The notes under the pieces are model-generated. The model did no database searches. It was not told the origin of the DNA and saw only the letters and a program-made list of their open reading frames with translations. A stretch of DNA of 64,000 bases from Candidatus Moraniibacteriota bacterium. GTDB taxonomy: Bacteria > Patescibacteriota > Minisyncoccia > Moranbacterales > DUUL01. The position numbers and the translations under genes are program-made. Positions 3,915 to 38,729 of this stretch are shown in pieces (the first letter of the stretch is position 1; the number at the start of each line of letters is the position of its first letter). The stretch is from the NCBI GenBank assembly GCA_041583775.1, contig JBFHFF010000004.1, positions 2,428 to 66,427 on the forward strand. The letters are read 5' to 3'.

Positions 3915-4694
3915 CTAGTAGAGTTTCCTTCGCAATTGTTTGAAAGTCAAAAAAGATAATAAGGAAAGTGTACCCGCAGCAAGTATTGTCATCATAGTTC
4001 CACTTCCAGTTGCTGGTGTGCTACGGTGAGCATAACCGAAATCTGCTTTTGTGTGATCGTCTTTATCTCCATCTAAATATACCTTTGCTTTGTTGTTAGG
4101 ATCTCCATCTGGATCATAAACTTGTGTGTAGCTATCAACATCGCTATCTTTTACATATATTTTGTAGTCTCCTTCACAAAGATCATCAAACTCATATCTA
4201 CCATTTTTATTTGTGTGAGTTGTCATTTCTTCATCATCTTTGGTATCCCATTTGAAATCTCGACCAATCCATTTTAGAGTCATTTTTATATCGTCGATAC
4301 CTTTTTCTCCATTGTCCTTTAGTCCATTTCCATTTTCATCATTCCAAACAAGGTTTCCAATTGAGCCGTCGCAAGAAGAATTTTTTCGTGATTCATGCTT
4401 GAATTCAACCTCGGTTTCAACTTCAATTTCTATTTCAGTTTCAATCTCAACCTCAACCTCTACCTCTACTTCTGGCTCTGGCTCAGGTGTAGGTTCTGGT
4501 TCTGGGCATGGCTCAGGTGTAGGTTCTTCCTCGGGAATTGGTGGATGACATTTGGGGCAAATTCTGTCATTAAACTGATCTTCCCATTTTTCAAAAAGAT
4601 CGTCATAATAGGTTGAGCCAGCAGAAGCTTTTTTGATGCCGAAAATTCCACTTAAAAGGAGAATCGCAAAAAGCAAGATAATAGCCTTCTTCAT
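3915..4694 (-). CDS. secreted surface protein: signal peptide, Pro/Glu-rich low-complexity linker, SdrD-B-like domain, C-terminal sorting-signal-like tail (TPATG + hydrophobic + KQLRRK)
   Basis: N-terminal MKKAIILLFAILLLSG signal. PEPEPTPEPEPEVEVEVE repeats. GNLVWNDENGNGLKDNGEKGIDDIKMTL...NGRYEFDDLCEGDYKIYV matches the SdrD B-repeat pattern. C-terminus HRSTPATGSG-TMMTILAAGTLSLLSFLTF-KQLRRKLY has the tripartite architecture of a sortase substrate. Confidence 0.6.
   Translation of the reverse strand: MKKAIILLFAILLLSGIFGIKKASAGSTYYDDLFEKWEDQFNDRICPKCHPPIPEEEPTPEPCPEPEPTPEPEPEVEVEVEVEIETEIEIEVETEVEFKHESRKNSSCDGSIGNLVWNDENGNGLKDNGEKGIDDIKMTLKWIGRDFKWDTKDDEEMTTHTNKNGRYEFDDLCEGDYKIYVKDSDVDSYTQVYDPDGDPNNKAKVYLDGDKDDHTKADFGYAHRSTPATGSGTMMTILAAGTLSLLSFLTFKQLRRKLY
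4403..4527. repeat. tandem short (6-bp unit) and 17-bp direct repeats inside the surface-protein gene
   Basis: ctcaac/ctctac/ttcaat units run in tandem. An exact 17-bp repeat ggctcaggtgtaggttc occurs at 4481 and 4511. Confidence 0.7.
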
Positions 4695-5316: not shown

Positions 5317-5757
5317 ATGTCAACAATCCTAAGACATTTTTGGGAAAAATATGATAGTCTCATTTTGATTGCCATAGCAATTTTCTTAGTTTTTGTGGTT
5401 GCATTTAAAGCTGGTCAATTAGAGAAGGGGTCAGAGAATGCTGCTAAAATAAACATCTCTTTGGCAAATAAAAAAGATGCCGAGCCCATAGATCAAAGAG
5501 CAAAAATAATTGAAGAAACTTTGCAAAGAAAGGATATTGAGAACAAGGCGAGTTCTTTGATAAGTGAAAAGCCAAGCGTACAAGAGACCCAAGAAAAGAA
5601 AGAATGTGCCTTTGTTGCATCTAAGAATTCCACAAAATATCACTTGCCAAATTGCAAAAATGCCACTAGAATCAAAGATAGTAATAAAATTTGTTTTAGT
5701 TCTGAAGAGGAGGCGAAAGCCAAGGGATATGAGCGAGCAAAGTGCTGTTTTAAATAA
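5317..5757 (+). CDS. membrane-anchored protein with C-terminal Ada-type Zn-binding-like motif
   Basis: N-terminal TM (LILIAIAIFLVFVVAF). C-terminal KYHLPNC...ICFSSEEEAKAKGYERAKCC aligns with the Ada N-terminal Zn site pattern (FCRPSC...FxSxxEAxAAGFRPCKRC). Family call is inference. Confidence 0.4.
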   Translation: MSTILRHFWEKYDSLILIAIAIFLVFVVAFKAGQLEKGSENAAKINISLANKKDAEPIDQRAKIIEETLQRKDIENKASSLISEKPSVQETQEKKECAFVASKNSTKYHLPNCKNATRIKDSNKICFSSEEEAKAKGYERAKCCFK

Positions 5758-5772
5758 TTTAAAGAAATAAAA

Positions 5773-6639
5773 ATGGTTGATCCAATAAATATTGATGCTA
5801 CAAAAATTAGAAGAAGTTTTTTTCGTTTTTGGAAATTTTTCTTAGTTTTATTCCTGGTAGTTATTTTTGGACCAAAGCTTTTAGTAACAATTAACGCAGG
5901 AGAAACTGGTGTCTATTCTCTTTTCGGAAAAGTAAGTGAAAAAGAACTCTCTTCAGGATTGCACATTGTTAATCCTCTCGGGCAAGTAACAAGGATGAAT
6001 ATTCGTACTGATGAATATACAATGAGTGTGATTCAGGGAGAAGGAAAGAGAGAGGGAGTCGATTCAATTTCAGCTCTGACTAAAGAAGGTTTGAGTATCG
6101 ATTTGGATATTACGGTATTGTATCATCTAAAGGAATCTGAGGCTTCAAGGGTGTACCAAACTGTTGGTTTGGGATATGAAGAAAAAGTCATCAGGCCAGA
6201 AATTAGAAGTGCTATCAGGGAAATTATTGCTCAATATGAAGCTAAGGATGTTTATTCTGAGAAAAGAGAGGAGGCAAATATGAAATTAAAGAATACACTT
6301 AGTGCTAAACTTGAAACAAGAGGGATTGAATTGGAAGATGTTTTATTGAGAAATGTACAGCTACCAGAAAATCTTGCCAGAACAATTCAAGAGAAATTAC
6401 AAGCAGAACAAGAATCTCAAAAATATGAATTTATTCTAGAAAAAGAAACAAAAGAAAAGCAAAGAAAAATAATTGAAGCGGAGGGACAAAGAGATGCCCA
6501 AACCATTATTACTGGAAGTCTTTCGCCTAATTATTTATATTATCTTTATATTAAAGATTTAAAAGATAGAGAGGGAACAATTTATGTTCCAACAAACCCA
6601 AGTACTGGAATGCCTACATTTAAAGAATTAGGAAAATAA
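5773..6639 (+). CDS. SPFH/band-7 (prohibitin/HflC-like) membrane protein
   Basis: N-terminal TM followed by an SPFH-like core (INAGETGVYSLFGKV...LHIVNPLGQV) and a coiled-coil, Glu/Lys-rich C-terminus. Confidence 0.7.
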   Translation: MVDPINIDATKIRRSFFRFWKFFLVLFLVVIFGPKLLVTINAGETGVYSLFGKVSEKELSSGLHIVNPLGQVTRMNIRTDEYTMSVIQGEGKREGVDSISALTKEGLSIDLDITVLYHLKESEASRVYQTVGLGYEEKVIRPEIRSAIREIIAQYEAKDVYSEKREEANMKLKNTLSAKLETRGIELEDVLLRNVQLPENLARTIQEKLQAEQESQKYEFILEKETKEKQRKIIEAEGQRDAQTIITGSLSPNYLYYLYIKDLKDREGTIYVPTNPSTGMPTFKELGK

Positions 6640-6716: not shown

Positions 6717-7421
6717 ATGCAAAAAGAAATGTTCGTAGTTTCACTCGGAGGCTCATTGATTGTTCCCGGAGAGATTAATTGGGAATTTTTAAAAGAGTTC
6801 AGAGCTTTGATTATTGAGCAAATTGAAAAGGGAAATCGCTTTATTATTGTGACTGGAGGCGGAAGTGTTACGAGGAAATATCAACAAGCTGCTGAAAAAA
6901 TTACTGACTTAACAAATGATGATTTGGATTGGTTGGGAATTCACTCTACTCGCCTGAATGCTCATCTGATAAAAACCATTTTCAGGGATTATGCGCACCC
7001 AAGAATTAACAAAAATCCTCGCACAAAAGAAGATTTGATGAGTCACTTTGAGAATGGAGAGGGGATTATGGTTGCAGCGGGATGGAGGCCAGGTTGGTCG
7101 ACTGACTATGTTTCGACAATACTTGCTGAAAGACTTGGCGCAAAAACTGTAATAAACCTTTCAAATATCAAATATGTTTGCGACAAGGATCCTAACAAAT
7201 TTGATGACGCAAAGGAATACAAAAATATCGGCTGGGCTGAATTTCGAAAACTTGTTGGCGATACCTGGGATCCAGGTTTGAATATGCCTTTTGATCCAAT
7301 TGCTTCAAAGCACGCAGAAGGGCTTGGCTTGAAGGTTGTCATTGCAGAAGGAAACAAGATTGATAATCTCAGAGATATTTTTGAGGGTAGAGATTTTATA
7401 GGTACAATCATTGAAAACTAA
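6717..7421 (+). CDS. pyrH: UMP kinase, archaeal-type short form (amino-acid kinase family)
   Basis: VVSLGGSLI...IIVTGGGSVTRKY...GIHSTRLNAHL...AAGWRPGWSTD, 234 aa. Matches archaeal PyrH layout and length. Confidence 0.75.
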   Translation: MQKEMFVVSLGGSLIVPGEINWEFLKEFRALIIEQIEKGNRFIIVTGGGSVTRKYQQAAEKITDLTNDDLDWLGIHSTRLNAHLIKTIFRDYAHPRINKNPRTKEDLMSHFENGEGIMVAAGWRPGWSTDYVSTILAERLGAKTVINLSNIKYVCDKDPNKFDDAKEYKNIGWAEFRKLVGDTWDPGLNMPFDPIASKHAEGLGLKVVIAEGNKIDNLRDIFEGRDFIGTIIEN

Positions 7422-7592: not shown

Positions 7593-7621
7593 TTGACAAT
7601 ATTTCAAATCAAAAGTAATAT
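7593..7621 (+). promoter_or_regulatory. sigma70-like promoter (TTGACA-17-TAATAT) upstream of the TrmB-like gene
   Basis: tttgacaatatttcaaatcaaaagtaatat, about 45 nt upstream of ATG 7664. Confidence 0.45.
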
Positions 7622-7663
7622 AAAATATATTTAGATTCAAATGAAATTAAATAGAAAAAATAA

Positions 7664-8413
7664 ATGAAAGCAACTGTTTTTGAGAAAATTGGGTTGTCTG
7701 AAAAAGAAACAAGAGTATATCTAGCACTCCTAGAAAGTGGTGGAATTTCGGTGCGTGGTTTGGCAGAAATCACCAAATTAAACAGGGGGAGTGTATACGA
7801 TATTTTGAAAAAACTTCAAATAAGGGGGCTGGTTAGTTTTTATCATCATGAAACAAAGCAAAAATTTGTTGCGGAAGACCCAGAGAAGTTGGGCTTATTA
7901 ATAGAAGAAAAGGAGCAAAAACTAAAAATTGCAAAGAACGAAATCGAAAAAATAATTCCAGAACTAAAATCTATACAAGATAAGAATGGGAAAAAACCAA
8001 CAACCAAATTCTATGAAGGGCGTTTGGGAATAAGGAAGATCTTGGAAGATATTTTTGAAGTTTTAATGAAAGAGGCTCAGGATGAAAAGGAGTATTTTGT
8101 TTATTCAGCAAAAGAGGCAAGTGAAGATATTAAAGATGCTTATCCAAATTTTACAAAAGATAGGATTAAAAAAGGGATTGAGGTGAAGGCGATTTCTTTG
8201 ACTGGAGGAGGGAGGACGAGTGGTTTAGATGAAAGAAGGTGGCTTGGAACACAGCAAGATTCAGCAACTTTTATTATTATTTATGCTGGAAAATGTGCTT
8301 TTATTTCTCGTGATGCACTAGATTCTCCAATTGGTGTAATTATCGAAAATGAAATGATTTATGAAACACAAAAGATTATTTTTTTACAATTATGGAATTT
8401 ATTAAATAAATAA
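7664..8413 (+). CDS. TrmB-family HTH transcriptional regulator
   Basis: N-terminal winged-HTH pattern LSEKETRVYLALLESGGISVRGLAEITKLNRGSVYDILKKLQIRGLV is typical of TrmB regulators. Confidence 0.65.
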   Translation: MKATVFEKIGLSEKETRVYLALLESGGISVRGLAEITKLNRGSVYDILKKLQIRGLVSFYHHETKQKFVAEDPEKLGLLIEEKEQKLKIAKNEIEKIIPELKSIQDKNGKKPTTKFYEGRLGIRKILEDIFEVLMKEAQDEKEYFVYSAKEASEDIKDAYPNFTKDRIKKGIEVKAISLTGGGRTSGLDERRWLGTQQDSATFIIIYAGKCAFISRDALDSPIGVIIENEMIYETQKIIFLQLWNLLNK

Positions 8414-8917: not shown

Positions 8918-10738
8918 ATGTGTGGAATTGTAGGTTACATTGGCAAAAATAAAGCTCTACCGATTTTGTTGAATGGGCTAAAAAAACTAGAATATCGTGG
9001 TTATGATTCAGCCGGAGTTGCTGTTTTTGGAGAGAACCCGAAGGTTTTTAAATCACTCGGAAAAATAAAAGAACTTGAAAAAAAAATCGGAGGACAGAAA
9101 ATTGAAGGTACAGTTGGAATTGCTCACACTCGTTGGGCAACACATGGAAAGCCTTCAGAGGTGAATGCGCATCCACACACTGATTGCAAGGGGAAGATTC
9201 AAGTTGTACACAATGGAATCATTGAGAATTATGTTGAATTGAAAGAAAAGCTCAAAAAGAAAGGACATAAATTTCGTTCGCAAACTGACAGCGAAGTAAT
9301 CCCTCATTTGATTGAGGATTTATACAAGGGAGATTTGACTGAAACATTCAAAGAAGTTTTGCAAATCATTAAAGGAGCCTATGGAATTGTGGTTTTTTCA
9401 AAAGATGAGCCCGATAAACTTTTAGTAGCACGACATGGAAGTCCACTTGTGATTGGAATTGGGAGAAGTGAAACAGTCATTGCTTCTGATGTCTGCGCAA
9501 TTTTGCAATACACCAAAAAAGTTATCTATCTTGAAGATGGGGAAATGGCAGAAATTGGGCGTGATGATTTCAGAGTCTTTGATGCGAGTTTGAATTTGAT
9601 AAAAAAGAACATTGAAAATGTGGAATGGGAAATTGAAGAATCTTCTAAGAAGGGCTTTGAACACTATATGTTGAAAGAAATCTTTGAACAGCCAAAATCT
9701 TTACAAGATTCCTTTGGGGGAAGAATTTCTTTAGATAATGGAACTGCAAGATTAGGAGGATTGACCGAAGTTGCTGATAGAATGCGTGGAATTGAGAGAA
9801 TAATAATTGTGGCTTGTGGAACAGCTTGGCATGCTGGGCTTGTCGGTGAATATATGTTGGAGGAATATGCTGGAATTCCAGTTGAAGTCGAGTGGGCGAG
9901 TGAATTTCGCTATCGCAATCCAATTTTGGATGACAAAACCACAGTGATTGCAATCAGCCAATCTGGAGAAACAGCCGACACTCTCGCAGGGATTCGAGAA
10001 GCAAAAAATAAAGGCGCTTTGGTTCTGGGAATTGTGAATTCGGTTGGCTCGACAATTGCCAGAGAAACAGATGCCGGGATATATAATCATATTGGGCCAG
10101 AAATTTCAGTTGCATCGACAAAAGCTTTTACTTCTCAAGTTGCTATCTTAGCTCTTATAACTGTTTTTCTTGGACGACAACGGCGTATGTCTCTTGTAAT
10201 GGGAAAAAGGATCTTGGAAGAACTTTCACTATTGCCAGAGAAGATTGAGGAATTTCTGAAGGATAATGACATCGAAAGAATTGCGAAGAAATATCACAAA
10301 GCTAAAAACTTTGCATTTTTAGGGAGAAAATATTGTCAGCCACTTGCGTTTGAAGGCGCTTTGAAGTTGAAAGAAATTTCCTATATTCACGCAGAAGGAT
10401 TTGCGTCTGGTGAAATGAAACACGGATCAATTGCCCTAATTGATAAAGATTTCCCTTCCTTTTTTATCGCTCCAAAAGACAGTGTTTATGATAAAAATGT
10501 GAGTAATATAGAAGAAATTAAATCTCGAGGAGGAAGTATAATTGCTATTACCACAAAGGGCAATAAACTACTTGAAAAAACAATAGATGATGTTATTTAT
10601 ATCCCTAAAACATTGGAAATGTTGACACCAATTTTAGCGACAATACCATTGCAACTTTTTGCATATTATGTAGCAAGAATGAAGGGTTTAGATGTTGATA
10701 AGCCAAGAAATCTTGCCAAGAGTGTCACAGTAGAGTAG
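8918..10738 (+). CDS. glmS: glutamine--fructose-6-phosphate aminotransferase (GlmS)
   Basis: N-terminal MCGIVGY (Ntn Cys1), glutaminase domain, two SIS domains (SQSGETADTL, AEGFASGEMKHG), C-terminal KPRNLAKSVTVE. 606 aa. Confidence 0.92.
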   Translation: MCGIVGYIGKNKALPILLNGLKKLEYRGYDSAGVAVFGENPKVFKSLGKIKELEKKIGGQKIEGTVGIAHTRWATHGKPSEVNAHPHTDCKGKIQVVHNGIIENYVELKEKLKKKGHKFRSQTDSEVIPHLIEDLYKGDLTETFKEVLQIIKGAYGIVVFSKDEPDKLLVARHGSPLVIGIGRSETVIASDVCAILQYTKKVIYLEDGEMAEIGRDDFRVFDASLNLIKKNIENVEWEIEESSKKGFEHYMLKEIFEQPKSLQDSFGGRISLDNGTARLGGLTEVADRMRGIERIIIVACGTAWHAGLVGEYMLEEYAGIPVEVEWASEFRYRNPILDDKTTVIAISQSGETADTLAGIREAKNKGALVLGIVNSVGSTIARETDAGIYNHIGPEISVASTKAFTSQVAILALITVFLGRQRRMSLVMGKRILEELSLLPEKIEEFLKDNDIERIAKKYHKAKNFAFLGRKYCQPLAFEGALKLKEISYIHAEGFASGEMKHGSIALIDKDFPSFFIAPKDSVYDKNVSNIEEIKSRGGSIIAITTKGNKLLEKTIDDVIYIPKTLEMLTPILATIPLQLFAYYVARMKGLDVDKPRNLAKSVTVE

Positions 10739-10874: not shown

Positions 10875-11867
10875 ATGGTAGATATGAGTTTTTTGCCTGA
10901 AGAAGTTAGGGCCACAGAAGTAATTGGAAAACTTGAAGATGCTGGTTTCAAGCATATTCATACAGGAAAGACAACAGAAGTTTTTGCTCATCCTCTTGAG
11001 CTAGATTTGCTTGTTTTGTATTCGACAGACAGGTGTGTCGTTGATGGCATTGTTCTGGGAGAGTTTCTTCAGGGGAGAGGGCTTTTCAATACGGCCTTGA
11101 ATATTTATTGGCTGAAAAGGATCTTCCATGATTGGAAGAATCATTTTGTTGCTTCTGGTTCTGCGATTAGAAGAATTTTTCCTAGTTTTCCAAGCGACGA
11201 TGAAATGCTGGGAAGATGCTTGGTTGTTAGAAGAGTGGAGATGCCCAGAATTAGGGTAGTCGTTCACGGTAACTTTGTTGGAAATTCCTTTGACGCATAC
11301 AAAGATGGTTTTTGGCAAAGACTTGGATATAATCTCCCGAGTAATTTAAAGGAGGGTGCTAAGTTAAGCAGGAATATTTTTGTTCCATTAATTAAATCTT
11401 CAGAGGGGGTTTATAAAGAAGCTTCTTTTGAGGCGATGGTTATTTCTTTAGGTGGTCTTCGCACCATTGCTATGCAAATAAAAAAACTTAGCCTTGGTAT
11501 TTTCAAAAGAGCAAATGATATCACTCGAACCAGAAATGTTTTGATCGCCAATGCAAAATTCGAGTTTGGCGTTTGGTATAACGAAGAGGGGGATTATTGG
11601 GAGTTGTTTTTGACTGGTCAAGTTCTTACTCCAAGAACAGCACTGTTTTTAAGATATAACCCCAAAAAAGAAATTCCCCTAGAGGTTTGCGGAGAGCAGG
11701 CTCTGATTGATTGGGGAGGCCAAGTCAAGCTTAAAGCTGATCCGTCACATTGTCCTCCACGAAAATTTCTTGAGCAAAAAAGCGATTGGTATAGGATTCT
11801 TCTGGAAAGACTTTCTGGTGAGGAAGCAGAAAAATTTTTCCGTTTTGAAATGGGAATAGGGAAATAA
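10875..11867 (+). CDS. divergent SAICAR-synthetase (PurC)-like protein
   Basis: Aligns by eye to the canonical PurC at 38730: DRCVVDGIVLGEFLQGRGLFNTALNIYWL vs [29 protein letters not shown], and LIANAKFEFGVWYNEEGDYWELFLTGQVLTPRTALF vs [31 protein letters not shown]. It is far more diverged than an orthologue would be. Confidence 0.55.
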   Translation: MVDMSFLPEEVRATEVIGKLEDAGFKHIHTGKTTEVFAHPLELDLLVLYSTDRCVVDGIVLGEFLQGRGLFNTALNIYWLKRIFHDWKNHFVASGSAIRRIFPSFPSDDEMLGRCLVVRRVEMPRIRVVVHGNFVGNSFDAYKDGFWQRLGYNLPSNLKEGAKLSRNIFVPLIKSSEGVYKEASFEAMVISLGGLRTIAMQIKKLSLGIFKRANDITRTRNVLIANAKFEFGVWYNEEGDYWELFLTGQVLTPRTALFLRYNPKKEIPLEVCGEQALIDWGGQVKLKADPSHCPPRKFLEQKSDWYRILLERLSGEEAEKFFRFEMGIGK

Positions 11868-13536: not shown

Positions 13537-13914
13537 TCATTGGAGTGTGTTGTTTGTTGGCAATTTCTTGCTTACCATCGAAATCAATTGATCAACGCCA
13601 AAAAGATATTCGATTACACACCTATGGAGGAAACAGTTTAGTAAATTTATTTTTTCATCTGATATGTTGGCTCTCTTTGTGCGACAATTGTCGCACAGGT
13701 CGTAGAGCGCAACACTTAAACAGATGTTTACTATGTCTTTTGAAATTGCCAAACGCAACTCCAGTAAAAAATTTTTTGCACCAACGAGATGCTTTATTTG
13801 ATAAGATGGGTCAAAGAAATGACTCGTGTCGCAACCTTCTTGTAAGATTGCGTTCAGTTTTTCTGTGATGAAAAAATCGAAATCCGCCAAAGATTCGCTT
13901 GGATAATTCATCAT
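13537..13914 (-). CDS. hypothetical protein (125 aa)
   Basis: ORF only. Hairpin aggtcgcattctcgaagttttgagaatgcgaccc lies at its 3' side (13497..13531). Confidence 0.4.
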   Translation of the reverse strand: MMNYPSESLADFDFFITEKLNAILQEGCDTSHFFDPSYQIKHLVGAKNFLLELRLAISKDIVNICLSVALYDLCDNCRTKRANISDEKINLLNCFLHRCVIEYLFGVDQLISMVSKKLPTNNTLQ

Positions 13915-14194
13915 AGTCTCTCCTCCTAGAAAGATTAAAATAATAAAATAATAAAGAACAGTATTATAATATTTACTATTGTATTATACAACAAAATAAT
14001 ATTTTTGTAAATAGTGACTTGTTTGTTAAATGAATTTTTAATTTATACTAAAAATAAAAAATGATCGGAGTATCCATTTGTTGAAACTTGGAAAGGCTTG
14101 ATATTAATAGTAAAATATGTCAAGATGCAGTGTTCTCAATTTCGGGAATAGTAATTGGTATTTTCAAAAAAGAAGATTAAAAAGGAGGATTGGA

Positions 14195-14635
14195 ATGTGG
14201 GAAAGAATTAAATTCATAGAAGCAACCCAATGGCTTTTATTGACAGATGAAAAGTCTAAATGGCTTTTATTGTCGAAATCGGATAAGGCCAAAGCTTCTA
14301 TGCAAGAAATAAAAATACTTGCATATGAATTGGTGAACACTTTTTTGTTGGAGGAAATCCCTCCTCCCGAAGGAGCTCTTGATAAAAAAAGAAGGAATGA
14401 GCTGGCTTTTTATGCTTTGGATCCAGAAAAACAACTGGAGATAGCTTTCCGCGTGGAAAATGACGGAGTCCATCTGTCTGAAGAGCGACAAAATCAAGTC
14501 GCATTTGAGATTTTAAAAGAAACTCTTTTAGCTGAGGCCAAGGTTTTGGCGGAAAAAATTTCCATTTCCACTGATAATGCGAAAGACTTCATCGCCAAGA
14601 AGATACTTTTATCTTTAGACGCGATGAAGTGGTGA
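14195..14635 (+). CDS. hypothetical protein 'A' (MWERIKF..., 146 aa), distant paralog of 16757..17206
   Basis: Strong RBS aaaggagg 5 nt before ATG 14195. The ORF-track start at 14117 is probably too early. Shares the MWER N-terminus and an xLxAYELxxxF segment with gene B. Confidence 0.55.
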   Translation: MWERIKFIEATQWLLLTDEKSKWLLLSKSDKAKASMQEIKILAYELVNTFLLEEIPPPEGALDKKRRNELAFYALDPEKQLEIAFRVENDGVHLSEERQNQVAFEILKETLLAEAKVLAEKISISTDNAKDFIAKKILLSLDAMKW

Positions 14636-14646
14636 AAAAATCACCA

Positions 14647-14690
14647 CAAAAACGACAAATCCAAAACATCGGATTTTGTCGTTTTTATTT
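14647..14690 (+). terminator. Rho-independent terminator T1 (identical copy at 17229..17270)
   Basis: caaaaacgacaaatccaaaacatcggattttgtcgttttt: 12-bp stem plus T-run. Confidence 0.7.
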
Positions 14691-14778
14691 TGCGGAAAAA
14701 AATGACTTTGCAGATATAAAAAAGGTTCAGTGATAAATGGTCCTTGAGCCTTTTTTATATCTTCTTTGTATTCCTACG

Positions 14779-14825
14779 ATAAAGCCTCAAATTCAAAACT
14801 AGACTTAAGATTTTAATGGTAGGGC
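14779..14825. repeat. about 47-bp direct repeat R (imperfect copy at 16319..16366) flanking gene X
   Basis: gataaagcctcaaattcaaaactagacttaagattttaatggtaggg vs aataaaacctcaaattcaaaattaagtttgagattttaatagtaggg, about 85% identity. Confidence 0.65.
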
Positions 14826-14855
14826 AGAACTCATTAGTTTTTAATGAGTTCTGCC
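14823..14855 (-). terminator. perfect 14-bp hairpin immediately 3' of gene X (bidirectional terminator)
   Basis: ggcagaactcattagtttttaatgagttctgcc. Confidence 0.6.
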
Positions 14856-14861
14856 GGATGA

Positions 14862-16235
14862 TTATTTTTTTTTGTTCCAAGGAACTCGTCCAAATCCTTG
14901 GCTAGGATCAGAACCGTTTTTCAAAAAAACGATCCCATTTTTTTCCCTCCATATCATTTGTTGCGATATGGGAAGCATTCCTTGAATGCTTCGTTTGACT
15001 TTTATTGCCAAATTATTGGCCAAAAGGATGTTGTCAGGAACATTTTCTAGTTCCTGTGTGGGCGTTCTTTCACATTCTAGACGGATGTTTTTTATCGCCC
15101 ACTCTGGTAGATGGGGAGTTTCTTTGGCTGGCGAGCCATTTCCCCTCCATGAGGAAATCTTTTCATTGGTAATTCCCCCAGAATTACCATCTTTTTCCCA
15201 GGTTTTTTCCCACCAGACACTTTGGCCTTTGGGGAGGATAATTACATCTTCATCCCCTCTTTGATTTGTGAGAAAAAAACCAAACTTTTTTTCATTTGAA
15301 ATTATACTGACGATTTCGTCAGTCAATTTCCTCCGAAGAATACTGACCGGATGATGAAACATCGCTTGGTCAAAAATCTCCGGATCAATTCCCTCCTCCA
15401 AGGTGTAGTATGGTTTTGCTGACTTGGTCAGCGTTTTTACATGTTGCGGTAGAAGCTTACCTTCTGCAGCAAGCTTCAAAAGCTCCAATCGACGATTTTT
15501 AAAATCTTCGATGGTGAGATTTTTATCCCACCAAGGATCTTTCAACTTGCCCTCATAGCCAATCATCCTCCACAAATCCATTTCAACGCTGATTTGCAGG
15601 AGGACATATTCCAAGTCTGCCCCTTCTGCAATGTATACCTGTTTAATTTGGCGTTCATTGCTCCAGTTTACGGCAAAACTTCCACCAGTTACCAATACCT
15701 CATCTGCCCTAATTGGACAGTTTTGGTGATATTGATTCGAGTGGTAACCCACCCTTGGTGACTCACTTATGATACTTTCTTGGCCGTCAGTGGTAATATA
15801 CCACCAATTTCCTCCCCTGTAAGTTGAGTGTGAGCAGTTACTCCCTCGTTGATACATCTTGTGATGTATCTCCTTCACATAGTCCACTCTTACGAGTGGA
15901 TCTATTGACATGACGAATTTTTCCAATTTGTTATTACCTGCTGACTTTGTCCAACAGTCAGCGGTTCCGGTTGTGTTCTTAAAAAACATATTCTTTCCCG
16001 CGTTTTTTTCAATATCGAAATGCCATATTTCATGTCTCCGAGCACCTGAAGTGCTGGTGACATGAAGGACGCCCTTAGATGTCCAACCATACCAGGTGTG
16101 TGATATGTTTATTTGATTATTTTTTGTTCCAGCTTTTACGCTTGAAACTACTTGCTCAAATCTTGTGTTTGAAATCATTTTAACATCCTCCACTCCGAAC
16201 CCTGGAGTTAGGGGGCGGGAAATCCGCTTTGTCAT
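14862..16235 (-). CDS. orphan Trp-rich hypothetical protein 'X' (457 aa), no recognisable domain
   Basis: Long uninterrupted ORF. No SD. Sits between repeats R/R' on the strand opposite its neighbours. Composition is rich in W, N, K, G. Confidence 0.5.
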   Translation of the reverse strand: MTKRISRPLTPGFGVEDVKMISNTRFEQVVSSVKAGTKNNQINISHTWYGWTSKGVLHVTSTSGARRHEIWHFDIEKNAGKNMFFKNTTGTADCWTKSAGNNKLEKFVMSIDPLVRVDYVKEIHHKMYQRGSNCSHSTYRGGNWWYITTDGQESIISESPRVGYHSNQYHQNCPIRADEVLVTGGSFAVNWSNERQIKQVYIAEGADLEYVLLQISVEMDLWRMIGYEGKLKDPWWDKNLTIEDFKNRRLELLKLAAEGKLLPQHVKTLTKSAKPYYTLEEGIDPEIFDQAMFHHPVSILRRKLTDEIVSIISNEKKFGFFLTNQRGDEDVIILPKGQSVWWEKTWEKDGNSGGITNEKISSWRGNGSPAKETPHLPEWAIKNIRLECERTPTQELENVPDNILLANNLAIKVKRSIQGMLPISQQMIWREKNGIVFLKNGSDPSQGFGRVPWNKKK

Positions 16236-16495
16236 TTTTCCATTACTTCACCAATTCCAGATTCTTTCTCAAAAATCCAAAAGCAGTGAAGTAAATTTTT
16301 TTAAAGTACGACTCTACAATAAAACCTCAAATTCAAAATTAAGTTTGAGATTTTAATAGTAGGGGTAAAATATTTTTTTACCTTAACCTATTATCATAAA
16401 AACTATTCTTATAATTTTTTAATATAGCATATTTTGAATTATTTGTCAAGGATTGTAACATTGCAGCGTCAAGTTTACACTTTTCAATTGGGGCT

Positions 16496-16610
16496 AGCTT
16501 TCCGCGTGGAAAATGACGGAGTCCATCTGTCTGAAGAGCGACAAAATCAAGTCGCATTTGAGATTTTAAAAGAAACTCTTTTAGCTGAGGCCAAGGCTTT
16601 GGCGGAAAAA
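16496..16610 (+). pseudogene. about 115-bp near-identical duplicate (1 mismatch) of the 3' part of gene A (14443..14558); gene fragment without start
   Basis: agctttccgcgtggaaaatgacggagtccatctgtctgaagagcgacaaaatcaagtcgcatttgagattttaaaagaaactcttttagctgaggccaagg(t/c)tttggcggaaaaa. The ORF-track entry 16434..16646 is a spurious extension. Confidence 0.7.
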
Positions 16611-16756
16611 TATTTTTTATTCCCCAACATCCTCGATTTTATCTGAACAAGAAAATAACAATAGTACTTGACGAAATGGTTGTATTGTGCCATTGTATAA
16701 AATTCTCAAAGATGGGAATTGGGGACAAAGCCTTCCCTTGGAAATAGGCAAGTTTT

Positions 16757-17206
16757 TTGAAATGGGAGAGAGATATGGATATCACAAGATTTAATGAATT
16801 GGCAGGAAAGCTTTTTTTGGCCGAAAGGGTAGATTTGCCAATGTTTTTGGCTGAAAATAGCAGCTTCTCTGAATGTGAGTATAGAAAATTTTTTGCAGAG
16901 CTCGCAAAGAATATTCAGGGATCGAGATCTGAGAAAGGTCAGATCCCCATTGAAGCAAGAAATTTGATGGCATATGAGCTTTTGTGTCATCAAGGTAATG
17001 AAACATTGCTCAACCAAAAAGTTGTTGAGCTTGATGTAAGAAAGGAAAATGAGCTTTACCAACTAGGATGGGACCTGTTGTTGACGCAAATAGAGGAGAA
17101 AAACCTTTATTTTGCTAGAAAGGTTGGCATTGCCATTTCAGAATCTCGAGCGTTTTGCGTTAGAATGCTCGAGTTTGTTTCTCAGGATACTTCCCTGGAT
17201 ATTTAA
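16757..17206 (+). CDS. hypothetical protein 'B' (MKWERDMD..., 149 aa), paralog of A
   Basis: MKWER N-terminus. Followed by terminator T1' identical to T1. Confidence 0.5.
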   Translation: MKWERDMDITRFNELAGKLFLAERVDLPMFLAENSSFSECEYRKFFAELAKNIQGSRSEKGQIPIEARNLMAYELLCHQGNETLLNQKVVELDVRKENELYQLGWDLLLTQIEEKNLYFARKVGIAISESRAFCVRMLEFVSQDTSLDI

Positions 17207-17228
17207 ATTACCCCAGGGAAGTTTTCCG

Positions 17229-17270
17229 CAAAAACGACAAATCCAAAACATCGGATTTTGTCGTTTTTTA
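17229..17270 (+). terminator. Rho-independent terminator T1' (identical to 14647..14690)
   Basis: caaaaacgacaaatccaaaacatcggattttgtcgtttttt. Confidence 0.7.
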
Positions 17271-17327
17271 TTTCAAAAGAACTTAATAACGGGATACAGA
17301 ACTTTTCTTGTTCCTATGTCAAATTGC

Positions 17328-17356
17328 TTGACAAATCACCTTTGATGTGTTATTCT
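17328..17356 (+). promoter_or_regulatory. sigma70-like promoter TTGACA-17-TATTCT
   Basis: ttgacaaatcacctttgatgtgttattct, 130 nt upstream of ATG 17487. Confidence 0.45.
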
Positions 17357-17398
17357 GCGAAGTTATTAATAGTTCTTTAACAATCCACCTAAAGCTTT

Positions 17399-17455
17399 CA
17401 CTTTCCGATTTTCATCTTTTTCTTTTCTCTAACTTGAGATGAAAATTGGAAAGTG
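17399..17455 (+). promoter_or_regulatory. 19-bp inverted repeat (1 mismatch) in the 5' leader of 17487 gene
   Basis: cactttccgattttcatct ...19 nt... agatgaaaattggaaagtg, ending 15 nt before the RBS aaaaaggagggg. Confidence 0.5.
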
Positions 17456-17486
17456 GAGGGATATCAAATAAAAAAGGAGGGGACAA

Positions 17487-17999
17487 ATGAAAAATCATAT
17501 CACAATGGAAGTAAGAGTAAAGAATATTCCTTTGTGGGGTATGTGGTTTCTTTTGACGGGGTTCATTATAATCGTCCCGTTTGAAAAAATTATGGAGGTA
17601 TATTTTCACATTGAATTCAATGTGGTTATTGCTGAAGCAATTAGGCTTTTGGCGTGGTTCGCTTCTGTTTTAATTTTACTCAAGCGCTGTGAAGTTGTGA
17701 AGTGGCATGAGCTCGCCAATGGCGTTGTTGATTGGAGGCAAGTTCCTATCAAAGGAGGATTTTGTTGTAACGCAGAGGTCCTCATCTATTTTGAGGATGG
17801 GAAAATAAGAAAAATATTAAAGAAACCTCTCTATAAGGAGTTCGGGGAAACTTCTATTGATTTCTATTGTGAAGAAGAATCAGGAGGGGAGTCTTTAAAT
17901 AATAAAGATTTCAGTGAGGAATCCCCTGCGCTTCTTAGTGACGAAGAATTCGGAGAGGAATCTCCTGCATTTATTAGCGAAAAAGAGCCCAGAAATTAG
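17487..17999 (+). CDS. hypothetical membrane protein with acidic repeated C-terminal tail
   Basis: RBS aaaaaggagggg. Two TM helices. Tail repeats SEESPALLSDEEFGEESPAFISEKE. Confidence 0.55.
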   Translation: MKNHITMEVRVKNIPLWGMWFLLTGFIIIVPFEKIMEVYFHIEFNVVIAEAIRLLAWFASVLILLKRCEVVKWHELANGVVDWRQVPIKGGFCCNAEVLIYFEDGKIRKILKKPLYKEFGETSIDFYCEEESGGESLNNKDFSEESPALLSDEEFGEESPAFISEKEPRN

Positions 18000-18024
18000 T
18001 CTTTTATAGGTCTCTTAATCTTAT

Positions 18025-18065
18025 AACGGTCCAATGCAAATTCGCATTGGACCGTTCTCTTTTTG
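18025..18065 (+). terminator. Rho-independent terminator (13-bp perfect stem)
   Basis: aacggtccaatgcaaattcgcattggaccgttctctttttg. Confidence 0.75.
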
Positions 18066-18202
18066 CAAACAGCTGGTAAATGTCGTAGAATAAAAACAAG
18101 TATTAGAATATTCACCCAATTGGATATATAATTTTAAACAAAGTACAAAGAATTATTTCAAAAAATAGGGGCAGGGGGTTTTAATCAAGAACCAAAAACA
18201 AA

Positions 18203-18868
18203 ATGGCTAAACTAAAAAATCTTCATAAAATCGAATGGCCCAGAGAAAAACTTCTGCACTATGGTGCTGGCAAACTTTCAAAATCAGAACTCCTAGCAAT
18301 TCTTTTGCGAACAGGAGCAAAAGGCGTGGATGTGGTGGAATTGTCCAAAAAAATACTAAGGAAATTTCCTCAATTCTCTTTGGCTGATGCGAATATCAAT
18401 GACTTGAAAAACACTTACGGATTAGGCGAAGCAAAAGCCTGTGAGATTGTGGCTTGCTTTGAGTTGGGAAGAAGGATGTTGAAAGGAAAAAAAGCCAATT
18501 TAATTCTTTCGCCAAAAGATGTTTGGGAAAATCTGAAAGACATCAGGAACAACAAAAAAGAACATTTTGTTGTTTTTTATTTAGATGCCAGAAATCAGGA
18601 AATTAAAAAGGAAACAATTTCAGTGGGGACTCTCAATGCCAGCTTGGTTCATCCCAGAGAAGTCTTTGAACCAGCCATCATCCACAGCGCTGCGCAAATC
18701 ATCGTCGCACATAATCATCCATCAGGATCTTCCAAGCCATCAAACGATGATTTGGAAGTGACCAAAAGACTGAAAGAAGCGGGAAGGATTTTGGGGATCG
18801 AAGTGATGGATCATGTGATTGTGACGAATGATAGTTTTTTTAGTATGAAAGAAGAGAATGTTTTTTAG
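18203..18868 (+). CDS. radC: RadC-like JAB-domain protein (UPF0758)
   Basis: HhH-like N-terminus. JAMM motif HNHPSGSSKPSNDDLEVT near the C-terminus. Confidence 0.8.
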   Translation: MAKLKNLHKIEWPREKLLHYGAGKLSKSELLAILLRTGAKGVDVVELSKKILRKFPQFSLADANINDLKNTYGLGEAKACEIVACFELGRRMLKGKKANLILSPKDVWENLKDIRNNKKEHFVVFYLDARNQEIKKETISVGTLNASLVHPREVFEPAIIHSAAQIIVAHNHPSGSSKPSNDDLEVTKRLKEAGRILGIEVMDHVIVTNDSFFSMKEENVF

Positions 18869-23455: not shown

Positions 23456-24022
23456 ATGAATAATAAAAGATTATATAAATTAACTAATATCGCAGAAATC
23501 TTTTCGGGATATTCCTTTAGGGGGGCTGTGCGTGAAGACAAAAATAGCCAAGTTTTTTTGATTCAAGCTAAGGACACAAGGAATTATTTGTCTGTAACGG
23601 AGGAAGATTTGAAGAAAATTACTGAAGAAAATTGTGGGGATAGATTTATAAAAAATGGCGATGTGGTGATAAGTGCGCGTGGATTTTTTTCAGCCACTGT
23701 TATTAATTCAAAAGAAAAAATAATCGGATCTTCCTCAGTTTATATTATAAAACCAGAGCAAAAAAAAATATTGTCTAAATACCTAGCAATTTATTTGAAT
23801 TCAAGAGTGGGACAAGCAGAAATAAAAAAATATGAAATTGGCTCAAGTATAAAAACAATTTTGATCGGTGATTTAAGAAATATTCAAATTGAAATTCCGA
23901 ATTTGAAAAAACAGCAAAAGATTGTTGAGTTATATGAAAATATTCAGAGGCAAAATGAACTCTTAGAAAAGAAAAAAGAAATTAATAAAAATATAATGGA
24001 AGCAATATTTATAAATAAATAA
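23456..24022 (+). CDS. hsdS: Type I R-M specificity subunit, half-size (single target-recognition domain)
   Basis: 188 aa. C-terminal conserved HsdS central/terminal motif IEIPNLKKQQKIVELYENIQ (cf. IPLPPLEEQKRIV). Confidence 0.6.
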   Translation: MNNKRLYKLTNIAEIFSGYSFRGAVREDKNSQVFLIQAKDTRNYLSVTEEDLKKITEENCGDRFIKNGDVVISARGFFSATVINSKEKIIGSSSVYIIKPEQKKILSKYLAIYLNSRVGQAEIKKYEIGSSIKTILIGDLRNIQIEIPNLKKQQKIVELYENIQRQNELLEKKKEINKNIMEAIFINK

Positions 24023-24026
24023 AATT

Positions 24027-25541
24027 ATGATACCAAAAAAATATACACAAGAAGATTTGAATAATACTCTTTGGGCAGCAGCTGATTCATCTAGAAGTAG
24101 TGTGGATGGGGGAATTTACAAGGATTATGCTTTGGCAATGTTATTTTTTAAATACATCAGTGATAAATCAAAAAAACAATTAGAAGAATACACAAAAAGA
24201 TTTGGCAAAGATAAGGAAAGAATTGCACAAAAAATGAAAAATGACCGTTTCTATTTGCCACCAAAAGCTACTTTTGATTATATTTATAGCGCTATCGAGA
24301 GCGATAAGATTGGTGAAGAAATCAATATAGCCTTACATGCTATTGAAGATAATAACAAGGAAAAATTAGGTGGTGTTTTTAGTGCGATTGATTTTAATTC
24401 TGAAGCTACACTGGGAAAGTTAGAACAACGCAACAAAATGATTCGTCATTTGATTAATGATTTTGCCAAAATAGATTTTAGTGATGTCAAAGAGGATGTG
24501 ATTGGCGATGCCTATATGTATATGATTGAACGCTTTGGAGCGGATGCTGGAAAGAAAGCAGGGGAATTTTTTACTAGACGATCAGTTGCATCTTTGGTGG
24601 CAAGATTAGCTAATCCAAAACCGGGAGACAGAATTTGCGATCCAGCGATGGGAAGCGCAGGTCTTTTGTTATTGGCTGGAGAAGAAGTGGAAAAAAAGGG
24701 TTCAAAAAATTATGCTCTATATGGGCAAGAGTCAACAGGAAGCACTTATCAATTGGCTAGGATGAATGTCTATTTGCATGGCAAAGATCATGCTCGCTTG
24801 GAATGGGGTGACACTTTGAATCAACCAGCACTAACAGAAAATGATAAATTGATGAAGTTCGATGTCTGTGTTGCTAATCCACCCTTTTCTCTGAAGAAGT
24901 GGGGGGCAGAAAGTGCTGAAAGCGATAAATACAAAAGATTTTGGCGTGGAACTCCTCCAAAAGACAAAGGAGATTTTGCTTTTATTACTCATATGGTGGA
25001 GACAGCTAAACCTAAAAAAGGTAGGGTATCGGTTATCGTCCCTCACGGTGTGCTTTTTCGTGGAGGAGCAGAAGGAAAAATTCGTGAGCAATTCATTCAA
25101 GAAAATATAATTGACGCGGTGATCGGACTGCCAGCCAATCTTTTTTCCACTACGGGTATTCCAGTGGCAATTTTAGTAATTGATAGATCAAGAGAAGTTG
25201 GCGGAACAAATGAAAACAAAAAAGACATTCTTTTTATTGAAGCTTCCAAGGAATTCCGTTCCGGAAAAGCGCAAAATCATTTAGACGAGGTGCATATTGA
25301 AAAAATTCTAGATACATATGACAAAAGAAAAGATGTGAAAAAATTTGCACATGTGGCAGATTTTAAGGAGATTGAGGAGAATGATTTTAATCTCAATATC
25401 ACTCGTTATGTGGATACTTTTGTTGAGGAAGAGCCGATTGATATCAAAGCTAATTTGAAAGAGCTGGAGAAACTTAACCCGGAGATTGAGAAATTGGAGA
25501 AAGAAATGGGGAAATATTTAAGAGAGTTAAACATTAAGTAG
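24027..25541 (+). CDS. hsdM: Type I R-M N6-adenine DNA methyltransferase subunit
   Basis: HsdM N-terminal domain. SAM motif I DPAMGSAGLL. Catalytic NPPF (ANPPFSLKKW). Confidence 0.9.
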   Translation: MIPKKYTQEDLNNTLWAAADSSRSSVDGGIYKDYALAMLFFKYISDKSKKQLEEYTKRFGKDKERIAQKMKNDRFYLPPKATFDYIYSAIESDKIGEEINIALHAIEDNNKEKLGGVFSAIDFNSEATLGKLEQRNKMIRHLINDFAKIDFSDVKEDVIGDAYMYMIERFGADAGKKAGEFFTRRSVASLVARLANPKPGDRICDPAMGSAGLLLLAGEEVEKKGSKNYALYGQESTGSTYQLARMNVYLHGKDHARLEWGDTLNQPALTENDKLMKFDVCVANPPFSLKKWGAESAESDKYKRFWRGTPPKDKGDFAFITHMVETAKPKKGRVSVIVPHGVLFRGGAEGKIREQFIQENIIDAVIGLPANLFSTTGIPVAILVIDRSREVGGTNENKKDILFIEASKEFRSGKAQNHLDEVHIEKILDTYDKRKDVKKFAHVADFKEIEENDFNLNITRYVDTFVEEEPIDIKANLKELEKLNPEIEKLEKEMGKYLRELNIK

Positions 25542-25547
25542 AGATAT

Positions 25548-25790
25548 ATGAGAAATAAAACATTAAAAACAACAAAAGAGACTTCAACTGGTCTAAATAA
25601 AAAAAGTATTGATTTGAAAAATCTTTCTGAAAAGGAAAATAAAGAGCTTATTAAAAAAGCTGATGCTGGAAATCTTCCTGGATATCATACTGTTAAAGCT
25701 GATGGTAAGAAAAAATTCTTAAGATCAAATCCTGATCGAAAGAAGAGTAACAATCTTGATCCTAAAATATCAAAAAAGGGTAAAAAATAA
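25548..25790 (+). CDS. small Lys-rich hypothetical protein embedded in the R-M operon
   Basis: 80 aa, very basic, 6 nt after hsdM. Confidence 0.4.
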   Translation: MRNKTLKTTKETSTGLNKKSIDLKNLSEKENKELIKKADAGNLPGYHTVKADGKKKFLRSNPDRKKSNNLDPKISKKGKK

Positions 25791-25804
25791 ATTAAAGGAT
25801 AACT

Positions 25805-26794
25805 ATGGCAAAAGCCCGATATAAAAATTTAGTAGATAAATCTGTACAGGCAGCAGTTTCTGCTATTGAGATTTACAATAAGCCAGATTTTAAATATCGG
25901 GAAGAGACTTTTGCTATCCTTATGATTAATGCCTGGGAGTTGTTGTTTAAAGCAAAAATCCTTTTAGATAATGATGGTAGGTTAAAAAGTATATATATTC
26001 CAGATAGGACTGAGAATTCAAAAGGAGAAAAATTAAAACGTTTTTATCCTAAAAAAAATCGCTCAGGAAATCCTCTAACTCTTGATATATTCTCATCAAT
26101 AAAACTTCTTAAGATAGATAATACTCTAAGTAAGAATATAGGTTTAATGGTTGAAATTAGGGACAATGCTATTCATTTTGTGAATGATTCAAAAGAATTT
26201 GAGAAAATAGTTCTTGAGATAGGAACAGCGACACTAAGAAGTTTTGTAACTTTGGTAAATGAATGGTTTGATTGTGATTTGGCAAATTATAATTTTTATT
26301 TAATGCCTATATCATTTTTTCATACTTTTGAAATGGAGAGCTTTTCTGTTAACAAAAAGAGTAAACAAAAAGAAAATTTTTTTGCTTTTATTTCAAATGA
26401 ATTAAATGAAAACTCTGCTGATTTAAATAAAAAACATAACATCGCATTGAGACTAGAGACAAGATTTGAAAAATCTAAATCAGTTGATGCACTGGCAGTG
26501 AGATATTCAAAAGATTCGCCAATTGTAGTAAGGCAAGAAATGGAAAATCGTATTCATGAAGGATTAAAAAACAAAAGTTTGTTTTCTCATGAAGACTTCG
26601 TTTCAAAATTAAGAGAAAAGATTCCAAATTTTAAAATAGACAAAGATTTTAATAAGCAGAAAAATGAAATGAAGAAAGATTCAAAATATTGTCTGACAGC
26701 GTATTTAAATCCCTTGGAAAAAAGCGGAACAAAAAGGCACTACTGGACAACGGAAGCAATGAAAAAAATTAAAATTCTATATGACAAAAAATAA
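25805..26794 (+). CDS. hypothetical protein embedded between hsdM and hsdS (possibly DUF3644-like)
   Basis: N-terminus AIEIYNKPDFKYREETFAILMINAWELLFKAKIL resembles what I recall of DUF3644. Its stop overlaps the hsdS start by 14 nt. Family call is low-confidence memory. Confidence 0.45.
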   Translation: MAKARYKNLVDKSVQAAVSAIEIYNKPDFKYREETFAILMINAWELLFKAKILLDNDGRLKSIYIPDRTENSKGEKLKRFYPKKNRSGNPLTLDIFSSIKLLKIDNTLSKNIGLMVEIRDNAIHFVNDSKEFEKIVLEIGTATLRSFVTLVNEWFDCDLANYNFYLMPISFFHTFEMESFSVNKKSKQKENFFAFISNELNENSADLNKKHNIALRLETRFEKSKSVDALAVRYSKDSPIVVRQEMENRIHEGLKNKSLFSHEDFVSKLREKIPNFKIDKDFNKQKNEMKKDSKYCLTAYLNPLEKSGTKRHYWTTEAMKKIKILYDKK

Positions 26795-28034: not shown

Positions 28035-28043
28035 AGTAATCCA

Positions 28044-28271
28044 ATGGAAAATTACAGAGACTGGGATAATGATTCAGGAATTGAAGCTTATGAAATTGAA
28101 AACGATGCCATAATTATTCAATTTAAAAATGGAAGAAATAAATTTTATAAATATACAAATTTTTCTTGTGGCTCAGATAATATTGCTATAATGAAACAAC
28201 TTGCTTGTGAAGGAGAGGGACTTAACGAATTTATTGTTGAAAATAAAATTGAGTACGAATCTAAATGGTAA
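28044..28271 (+). CDS. KTSC-domain small protein
   Basis: IEAYEIENDAIIIQFKNGRNKFYKYTNFSCGSDNIAIMKQLACEGEGLNEFI fits the KTSC pattern (S.i..v.Y......L.v.F..G..Y.Y..v......l..A.S.G.y.n..I). Confidence 0.5.
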   Translation: MENYRDWDNDSGIEAYEIENDAIIIQFKNGRNKFYKYTNFSCGSDNIAIMKQLACEGEGLNEFIVENKIEYESKW

Positions 28272-28287
28272 TTTTTTGAATACTATT

Positions 28288-29136: not shown

Positions 29137-29137
29137 T

Positions 29138-38480: not shown

Positions 38481-38729
38481 ATTATATCCCATTTTAAATG
38501 CAATCTTATGGGAATTTCTTGTTTTTTGGAAAGCATCTACAGAAAAAACAAAACCATCAAACAAATTGCAGAAGATTTGGGCTTGCAAAGGGGATGGTCT
38601 TAGAATTTAAAGGGGCTCAAAAAAGTCCTTTTTACTTTACAAAAGCACCATCGCGTGCTTTAATAGTCTAATCGCAAATGTGCGAGAAGAAGAAGTTCTT
38701 ATTATAAATTGGAAACTAGAGGAGGTTTT

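Follow-up and report, generated by a model that had tools for sequence, protein, structure and literature searches.

Campbell-type integration and homology-facilitated illegitimate recombination leave scars in which near-identical direct repeats with sharp borders accompany a leftover gene fragment, and the intervening DNA may be lost again by recombination. Other described systems share part of this anatomy. Orphan toxin-tip/immunity modules of the contact-dependent inhibition (CDI) and Rhs systems, as well as silent pilS cassettes, consist of a promoterless copy of a gene stretch with an alternative C-terminal end and a small downstream gene, and integron cassettes hold a gene between imperfectly palindromic direct repeats (attC), of which clusters lacking an integrase also exist. 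Repetitive extragenic palindromic (REP) sequences, bacterial interspersed mosaic elements (BIMEs) and intercistronic stem-loops are short repeats with secondary structure that immediately follow stop codons and could protect or process mRNA 3' ends. Diversity-generating retroelements, which are common in genomes of the candidate phyla radiation (CPR), carry a repeat of ~120 nt twice, once close to the 3' end of a gene and once as non-coding sequence in its vicinity. Features recalling all of these systems are found together at one locus of Candidatus Moraniibacteriota bacterium (GenBank assembly GCA_041583775.1), within a stretch of 64,000 nt of contig JBFHFF010000004.1 (positions 2,428 to 66,427, hereafter the window). 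There, two small orphan genes, A and B, surround a larger gene, X, encoded on the opposite strand, and three pairs of direct repeats (D1, T and R) are distributed among them. Judging from the sequence, we consider, with about even confidence, that the locus bears the scar of a recent recombination, within a horizontally acquired patch that varies between strains in a small genome of low GC content.

A self-comparison and a repeat search revealed repeats that are all far beyond chance, and no further copy of D1, T or R was detected anywhere in the 64-kb window by blastn. D1 comprises 116 nt at 14442-14557, inside gene A (D1a, forward strand), and at 16495-16610 (D1b, forward strand), with 99.1 % identity (blastn E 2e-59) and a longest exact stretch of 102 nt. 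Its sole mismatch, located 13 nt from the right end (14544 T / 16597 C), changes Val117 to Ala in A, and a leftward extension of 10 nt (from 14432 and 16485) already contains 3 mismatches. The earlier note had described this block as a copy of the 3' end of A with a single mismatch; the copy and the mismatch hold, and the segment corresponds to residues 83-121, that is, to a 3'-proximal internal piece from which the final 26 codons of A are missing. D1b is promoterless, keeps the frame of A and then enters a different tail of 12 codons (KYFLFPNILDFI) that ends at the stop codon 16644-16646. The second repeat, T, is identical at 40 of 40 positions between 14647-14686 (Ta) and 17229-17268 (Tb), both on the forward strand (blastn E 2e-16), and belongs to a wider stretch of 48 nt at 94 %. 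It folds into a hairpin (ACGACAAATCC/GGATTTTGTCGT) with a T-run behind it, and with this hairpin plus TTTTT situated 11 nt past the stop codon of A and 22 nt past that of B it forms an intrinsic (rho-independent) terminator for each gene; a simple terminator scan missed it, the stem being bulged and poor in GC pairs. Similarity of the flanks just outside D1 and T was no better than that of shuffled sequences, therefore the borders are sharp and not those of a decayed old duplication.

The third repeat, R, is of a different kind. Its two copies, 14774-14824 (R) and 16314-16364 (R'), both read on the reverse strand, bracket X as a 51-nt direct repeat of 84 % identity, and a degenerate 40-nt R pattern recognizes exactly 2 sites in 64 kb against 0 expected. 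All three pairs lie where they had first been noticed, give or take a few bases, and the suggestion made then of a recent duplication or insertion is borne out by near-identical repeats with sharp borders within 3 kb, X standing as a bounded cassette-like unit.

In the explanation favored here, the order of the locus, A5'-D1-tail1-T-[X cassette]-D1-tail2-B-T, would be the result of a single recent recombination that put two versions of one small-gene locus in tandem, with the autonomous X cassette between them. Version 1 of the locus end would consist of A up to D1, the 26-codon tail and T, and version 2 of D1, the 12-codon tail, B and T, D1 and T being the sequences common to both. The incoming piece may have been supplied by a second allele or a paralogue of the locus, reaching from within an A homologue to T, and would have been joined beside an X cassette already present downstream of A; one of its ends would have been anchored by homology (T plus downstream DNA), and the other would be an illegitimate junction at ~16483. 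Campbell-type integration of an excised circle would yield the same product, and the two routes are indistinguishable here. A former A'-B operon ending at T is conceivable because the promoter scan gave no consensus promoter between D1b and B; in an arrangement A5'-D1-tail2-B-T, B would be co-transcribed with a shortened A, and both arrangements are coherent. Recombination between the two D1 copies would remove 2053 bp, so that X would be lost and A fused to the short tail, followed by B, and recombination between the two T copies would remove 2582 bp, including X and B.

The degree of identity of D1 and T, together with a D1b that stays in frame before running into an unrelated tail, argues for a single recent event. 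Further support comes from the composition of the region, from the singleton status of A and B, from the varied contexts of X-family genes and from the lack of a detected recombinase: the GC content at third codon positions (GC3) amounts to 0.37-0.40 in the genes o125, A, X, B, o170 and RadC (13537-18868) versus 0.25-0.33 in core genes, which suggests an acquired island of ~5 kb made almost entirely of orphans, and Pfam scans of 37 open reading frames (ORFs) of the window gave no integrase or transposase domain.

The repeats were also examined in public assemblies: Logan contigs of three runs, built on a k=31 graph, match the window at 100 % identity. Contig L013 ends at 14471 (14441+30), as such a graph predicts for a repeat starting at 14442; L001, which carries X, ends at 14657 (14687-30), as predicted, reading 30 nt into T; and L014 and L016 start at 17239 (17269-30), again as predicted. 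Since the unitig ends coincide with the predicted D1/T positions in three of four cases, the repeats are present in reads from several samples and were not made by the assembler of the metagenome-assembled genome (MAG). At its other end L001, recovered as the same contig in 3 samples, stops at 16482 rather than at the predicted 16524, 42 nt short and 2 nt from the start of the similarity to A. Most simply, this would be explained by a second path at 16482, that is, by a junction (16483-16494) of the X cassette with the A-derived block that is polymorphic in the population.

Several considerations weigh against the scar explanation. No related genome with the state preceding the event was found, and the event and its direction are reconstructed from one sequence; in contrast to described insertion scars, neither a donor nor an empty site was observed, and two repeat pairs with different fillings require two alleles. 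The order of the two D1-to-T fillings is that of one assembly, as the unitigs cannot phase the fillings and the contig index contains neither A nor B, and the polymorphic junction rests on a single contig end, though one seen in three samples. In addition, the marginal paralogy of A and B, combined with their identical terminators, could reflect gene conversion between old tandem paralogues.

Among the alternatives, an ambiguity or artefact of the assembly is unlikely. The MAG contig would then be a single path assembled from the X segment and the alleles of two strains (A-long+T and A-short+B+T), and in reality there would be a one-allele chromosome along with a small circle composed of the X segment, D1, a filling and T (2053 or 2582 bp), or else the fillings would stand in the opposite order. 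The k=31 graph does hold a cycle leading from T to X, D1, one of the fillings (s1 or s2) and back to T, with unitigs that break at every repeat. The X-to-D1b junction lies outside the public unitig, the full A and B proteins occur only in the NCBI record and not in the Logan assemblies, and look-ups of A, B and two small ORFs put no independent contig across the junctions on record. Conversely, the adjacency of T and X is real in the reads, as seen in L001, so that X does adjoin a copy of T; the exact stretch of D1 and its diagnostic mismatch can be phased by 150-nt reads and large-k assemblers; and relatives of X are chromosomal elsewhere (e.g., on a contig of 623 kb) and absent from plasmid and phage records.

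Gene A (14195-14635, forward strand) encodes an orphan protein of 146 aa and is preceded by an AAGGAGG ribosome-binding site and by a weak promoter-like site at 14088-14116. Gene B (16775-17206, forward strand) encodes an orphan of 143 aa when read from the ATG at 16775, which is the database call; the 'MKWER' start formerly assigned to it belongs to an ORF opening at 16757 with a TTG that lacks a ribosome-binding site, and is not retained. Both proteins are singletons among 5.8 billion protein clusters, and the only database match of A is A itself. Their description as distant paralogs finds partial support: BLASTP aligned them with 29 % identity over 83 aa (E 0.002) and the Smith-Waterman score of 58 was equalled by one of 2000 shuffles, evidencing a weak similarity, while global alignment reached a z of 3.3, so that paralogy is possible but marginal. 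A shows an apparent internal repeat of the form (I/V)xxA(Y/F)E(L/I)(V/L)xxT(F/L)LxE (residues ~40-54 and ~101-115), because of which the local A/B alignment slides out of register. At the DNA level no similarity of B to A was detected.

These data bear on the possibility, rather unlikely in our view, that A and B are old tandem paralogues whose T flanks and an A-derived pseudogene piece are kept identical by continuing gene conversion, X having been inserted between them at an earlier time. The weak but non-random resemblance of the proteins and the identical terminators after both genes agree with it. However, D1b is upstream of B and not inside it, B and A share no DNA similarity, and the homologous recipient tract that conversion would require is not visible around D1b; sharp borders and an identical T between flanks without similarity are better explained by one copying event.

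Programmed variation, in a form that is the nearest concrete version of the immunity or cassette idea of the earlier note, is improbable. It would regard D1b, tail2 and B as a promoterless orphan module, in which a crossover in D1 gives A another C-terminus, places B behind the promoter of A and drops X, in the manner of orphan toxin-tip/immunity displacement or of antigenic variation from silent cassettes. The geometry fits, with an expressed gene, a homology tract and an alternative tail plus a small gene for which no promoter was found, and the surroundings (a type I restriction-modification system, a weak MazE_antitoxin-family match and RadC within 15 kb) resemble a neighbourhood of defence and mobile genes. 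Unlike CDI/Rhs modules and pilS cassettes, however, the locus offers a single orphan copy with one mismatch and an alternative tail of only 12 codons without any domain, and the host gene is small, its product having no toxin, secretion or surface signature; A and B lack relatives, the predicted protein joining A' to the short tail is not among the database matches for A, and the switch would be an irreversible deletion. No significant match was obtained for A, B, X or three neighbouring orphans in Pfam, PHROGs, PADLOC or NCBIfam; the best PADLOC E-values (0.02-0.05) covered short stretches only. With these results, and with one orphan fragment rather than a series, an immunity or variable-cassette array is not sustained. 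The likeness to diversity-generating retroelements ends with the size and placement of the repeat: no YxDD motif occurs in any ORF of at least 150 aa and no reverse transcriptase domain appeared in the scans, and the only difference in the core of the repeat is T/C, neither adenine-specific nor accompanied by signs of mutagenesis.

X occupies an ORF of 457 aa (14862-16235, reverse strand), as had been reported together with its richness in Trp and its lack of a recognizable domain. The ORF and the absence of a family match stand; the length has to be revised, as translation very probably begins at Met20 (16178), because all relatives align from this position, a GGAGGA motif lies 7 nt upstream and the stretch before it is conserved as nucleotides and not as protein. 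Gene X would therefore extend over 14862-16178 and encode 438 aa, of which 17 (3.9 %) are Trp. Alignments and profile searches revealed a strongly conserved N-terminal beta domain of ~85 residues with the motif HTWxGW..K.VLH..S.SGA....WHF......FKNTTG.A.C, which X carries, followed by variable modules, with the middle and C-terminal parts built in at least two alternative ways across the family. Relatives are few: 5 were obtained in an indexed search, 49 representatives at E <= 0.001 in a profile search among 1.84 billion proteins, and a single match in 185,579 species-representative genomes, in a MAG of Candidatus Paceibacterota where the context is unrelated. None was found by tblastn in 50,697 phage and 72,556 plasmid records, and scans of IMG/VR gave none either. 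None of the 51 family members contains a credible Pfam domain, the family profile did not match any PDB sequence, and the structure search recommended at the outset, made with a confident AlphaFold model, gave no fold relative in PDB or BFVD. The homologues sit in unrelated contexts at every locus examined, and no neighbours common to them were detected; one of them, truncated to 210-230 aa, is encoded on the 623-kb Paceibacterota contig mentioned above (locus L003). A role of X as a plasmid replication protein or as a transposase was considered and dropped, as no motif, fold or context supports it. The family is rare and modular.

X is a self-contained transcription unit with a promoter, a long structured 5' untranslated region (UTR), the gene and hairpins. 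The best promoter match of the region (16421-16449, reverse strand) consists of TTGACA, a 17-nt spacer and TATATT, preceded by TG, and agrees with the consensus at 11 of 12 positions. It ends 242 nt before the start codon, which leaves a 5' UTR of roughly 235 nt. At three other X-family loci (L002, L007 and L017) near-consensus promoters end 186-235 nt upstream, therefore long 5' UTRs characterize the family at least in part (4/8 loci, roughly 180-235 nt). Immediately before the gene lies a conserved leader (16183-16216, reverse strand), composed of GC(A/C)CCCUAAC, a hairpin ACUCC/GGAGU (16192-16208) and GGAGGA ahead of the start codon. In alignments over 5, 6 and 8 loci, the series GCACCCUAAC-ACUCC-loop-GGAGU-GGAGG was found directly before the ribosome-binding site at all eight loci, with a stem of 5-6 bp; outside the window it is located at ~520-552 in L002, ~10022-10052 in L003, ~5962-5996 in L004, ~470-505 in L007, ~396-430 in L010, ~4962-4996 in L017 and ~303-345 in L018. 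The stem shows compensatory changes, from C-G to U-A in L004 and from A-U to G-C in L010 and L018, and the CCU of the leader is able to pair alternatively with part of the ribosome-binding site. The stretch is non-coding because an extra base in L002 shifts the frame. Searches of Rfam in gathering and E-value modes gave only chance matches to miRNA-like hairpins, and the leader hairpin is put forward as a candidate new cis-regulatory RNA element.

At the other end of the unit, the perfect 14-bp hairpin attributed to X was confirmed (14823-14836 / 14842-14855, reverse strand); it begins 7 nt past the stop codon of X and is not followed by a U-run on that strand. A better candidate for the 3' end of the X transcript is an 18-bp inverted repeat at 14712-14762, 94 % complementary and placed between an A-run and a T-run, which probably acts as a bidirectional terminator. 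With these limits, R and R' would both be carried on the X mRNA, one in each UTR. Each copy forms an imperfect hairpin; R adjoins the stop-proximal hairpin and R' is preceded on the X strand by a hairpin GGTAAAA/TTTTACC (16363-16381), and a fold z of -6.2 was obtained for R and the neighbouring hairpin taken together.

R is absent from the other X-family loci and, like T, from IMG/VR. Comparable elements of different sequence were found at two of these loci. A direct repeat of 80 % identity also brackets the X homologue of L004: an element of ~75 nt is present in 3 copies (4597-4670, 5754-5827 and 7322-7395), shortly past the stop codons of three unrelated consecutive genes that encode proteins of 276 aa, 351 aa and, in the case of the X homologue, 435 aa, and consists of a hairpin with compensatory stem changes, a TTGGT-containing loop and a conserved tail of 45 nt. 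A tRNA gene (7955-8027, minus strand) is located just past this array. L003 contains a different 64-nt element in 80 % identical copies (7600-7663 and 9107-9170), with the sequence GCTCGAG...GCTCGAG, after genes for an AAA-ATPase and a vWA protein and upstream of the truncated X homologue; it flanks the neighbour gene and not the X homologue. No flanking direct repeat was detected around the homologues in L002, L007, L010, L017 and L018, and bracketing as a trait of the X family was rejected, L004 being the only one of the other loci checked for flanking repeats that displays it.

Here R is taken for a structured intergenic element specific to this genome and akin to REP sequences or intercistronic stem-loops, which the elements of L003 and L004 also resemble, although it differs from REP/BIME sequences in having 2 copies in 64 kb, one of them in a 5' UTR. 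From its divergence, R appears clearly older than D1 and T and different in kind from them. The earlier view of R as the border of a recently moved X unit is not upheld, since 84 % identity compared with 99-100 % in D1/T places R outside the recent event and bracketing was present at only 2 of 6 X-family loci examined for it.

Two further proposals give these elements a more active part. According to the first, which is very improbable, X-family genes and the L004 neighbours would be cassettes of an undescribed, integrase-independent CPR system that uses structured 50-75-nt elements behind each gene, such as R and the three-copy element of L004, as sites of recombination or mobilization, one cassette having just been shuffled into the A/B locus. 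According to the second, which can hardly be maintained, X with R and R' would be a mobile cassette of an integron-like or novel site-specific system, with R as recombination site. The direct, hairpin-forming repeats around X, the array-like series of L004, in which each of the consecutive genes is followed by a structured element, and the presence of X-family genes in unrelated contexts are in line with the latter proposal. In contrast to integron cassettes, X has its own strong promoter and a long leader, neither R region showed attC cores (RYYYAAC/GTTRRRY) on either strand in regular-expression searches, and no integrase was found in the scanned ORFs of the window; the two R copies have diverged and have no counterpart elsewhere, the repeats differ completely between genomes, and bracketing fails at five of the other loci, while in L003 the repeat flanks a neighbour. 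Tested against the combination of a transposase, terminal inverted repeats and a short target duplication, the locus did not qualify as an insertion sequence, a miniature inverted-repeat transposable element (MITE) or another transposon.

Regarding the genomic context, the window is chromosomal, with 34.7 % GC, and includes genes for GlmS, SAICAR synthetase, GluRS, a P-type ATPase, a sortase and a complete type I restriction-modification system. No tRNA genes were found in the window, and hence no tRNA-linked island border here. The restriction-modification locus (23456-33018) comprises two genes for specificity subunits, HsdM, DUF3892, DUF3644, HsdR (29138-32317) and a YgjP-like metallopeptidase; with two HsdS genes, shuffling of specificity could take place. 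The weak MazE_antitoxin-family match corresponds to a small gene upstream of this locus (~23.07-23.24 kb). Two SAICAR-synthetase-like genes are present, one with a weak match (10875-11867, E 5e-21) and one with a strong match (38709-39662, E 1e-71). Beyond B, a hairpin with 19-nt arms, 95 % complementary (17399-17455), is situated in the 5' region of a gene for a 170-aa membrane protein, downstream of a promoter-like site TTGACA-17-TATTCT (17328-17356), and was the source of the chance miRNA-like Rfam matches. At its C-terminus the 170-aa protein carries an acidic tandem repeat (…EESPALLSDEEFGEESPAFISEKE…) encoded at 17880-17999, with a matching DNA repeat at 17908-17923 and 17947-17962.

The repeat architecture, taken as a recombination scar, is in itself ordinary and touches no long-standing open question; the X family and its leader are the new descriptions. 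If the scar explanation is true, the locus would be a small and clean case of strain-specific shuffling of orphan genes in the reduced genomes of the CPR, for which the direct repeats predict specific deletion variants. Of more lasting value is the definition of the X family as a rare and modular group of proteins with a strongly conserved N-terminal domain, no structural relative found in PDB or BFVD and a conserved leader hairpin, and this hairpin may provide a handle on the function of X-family genes.

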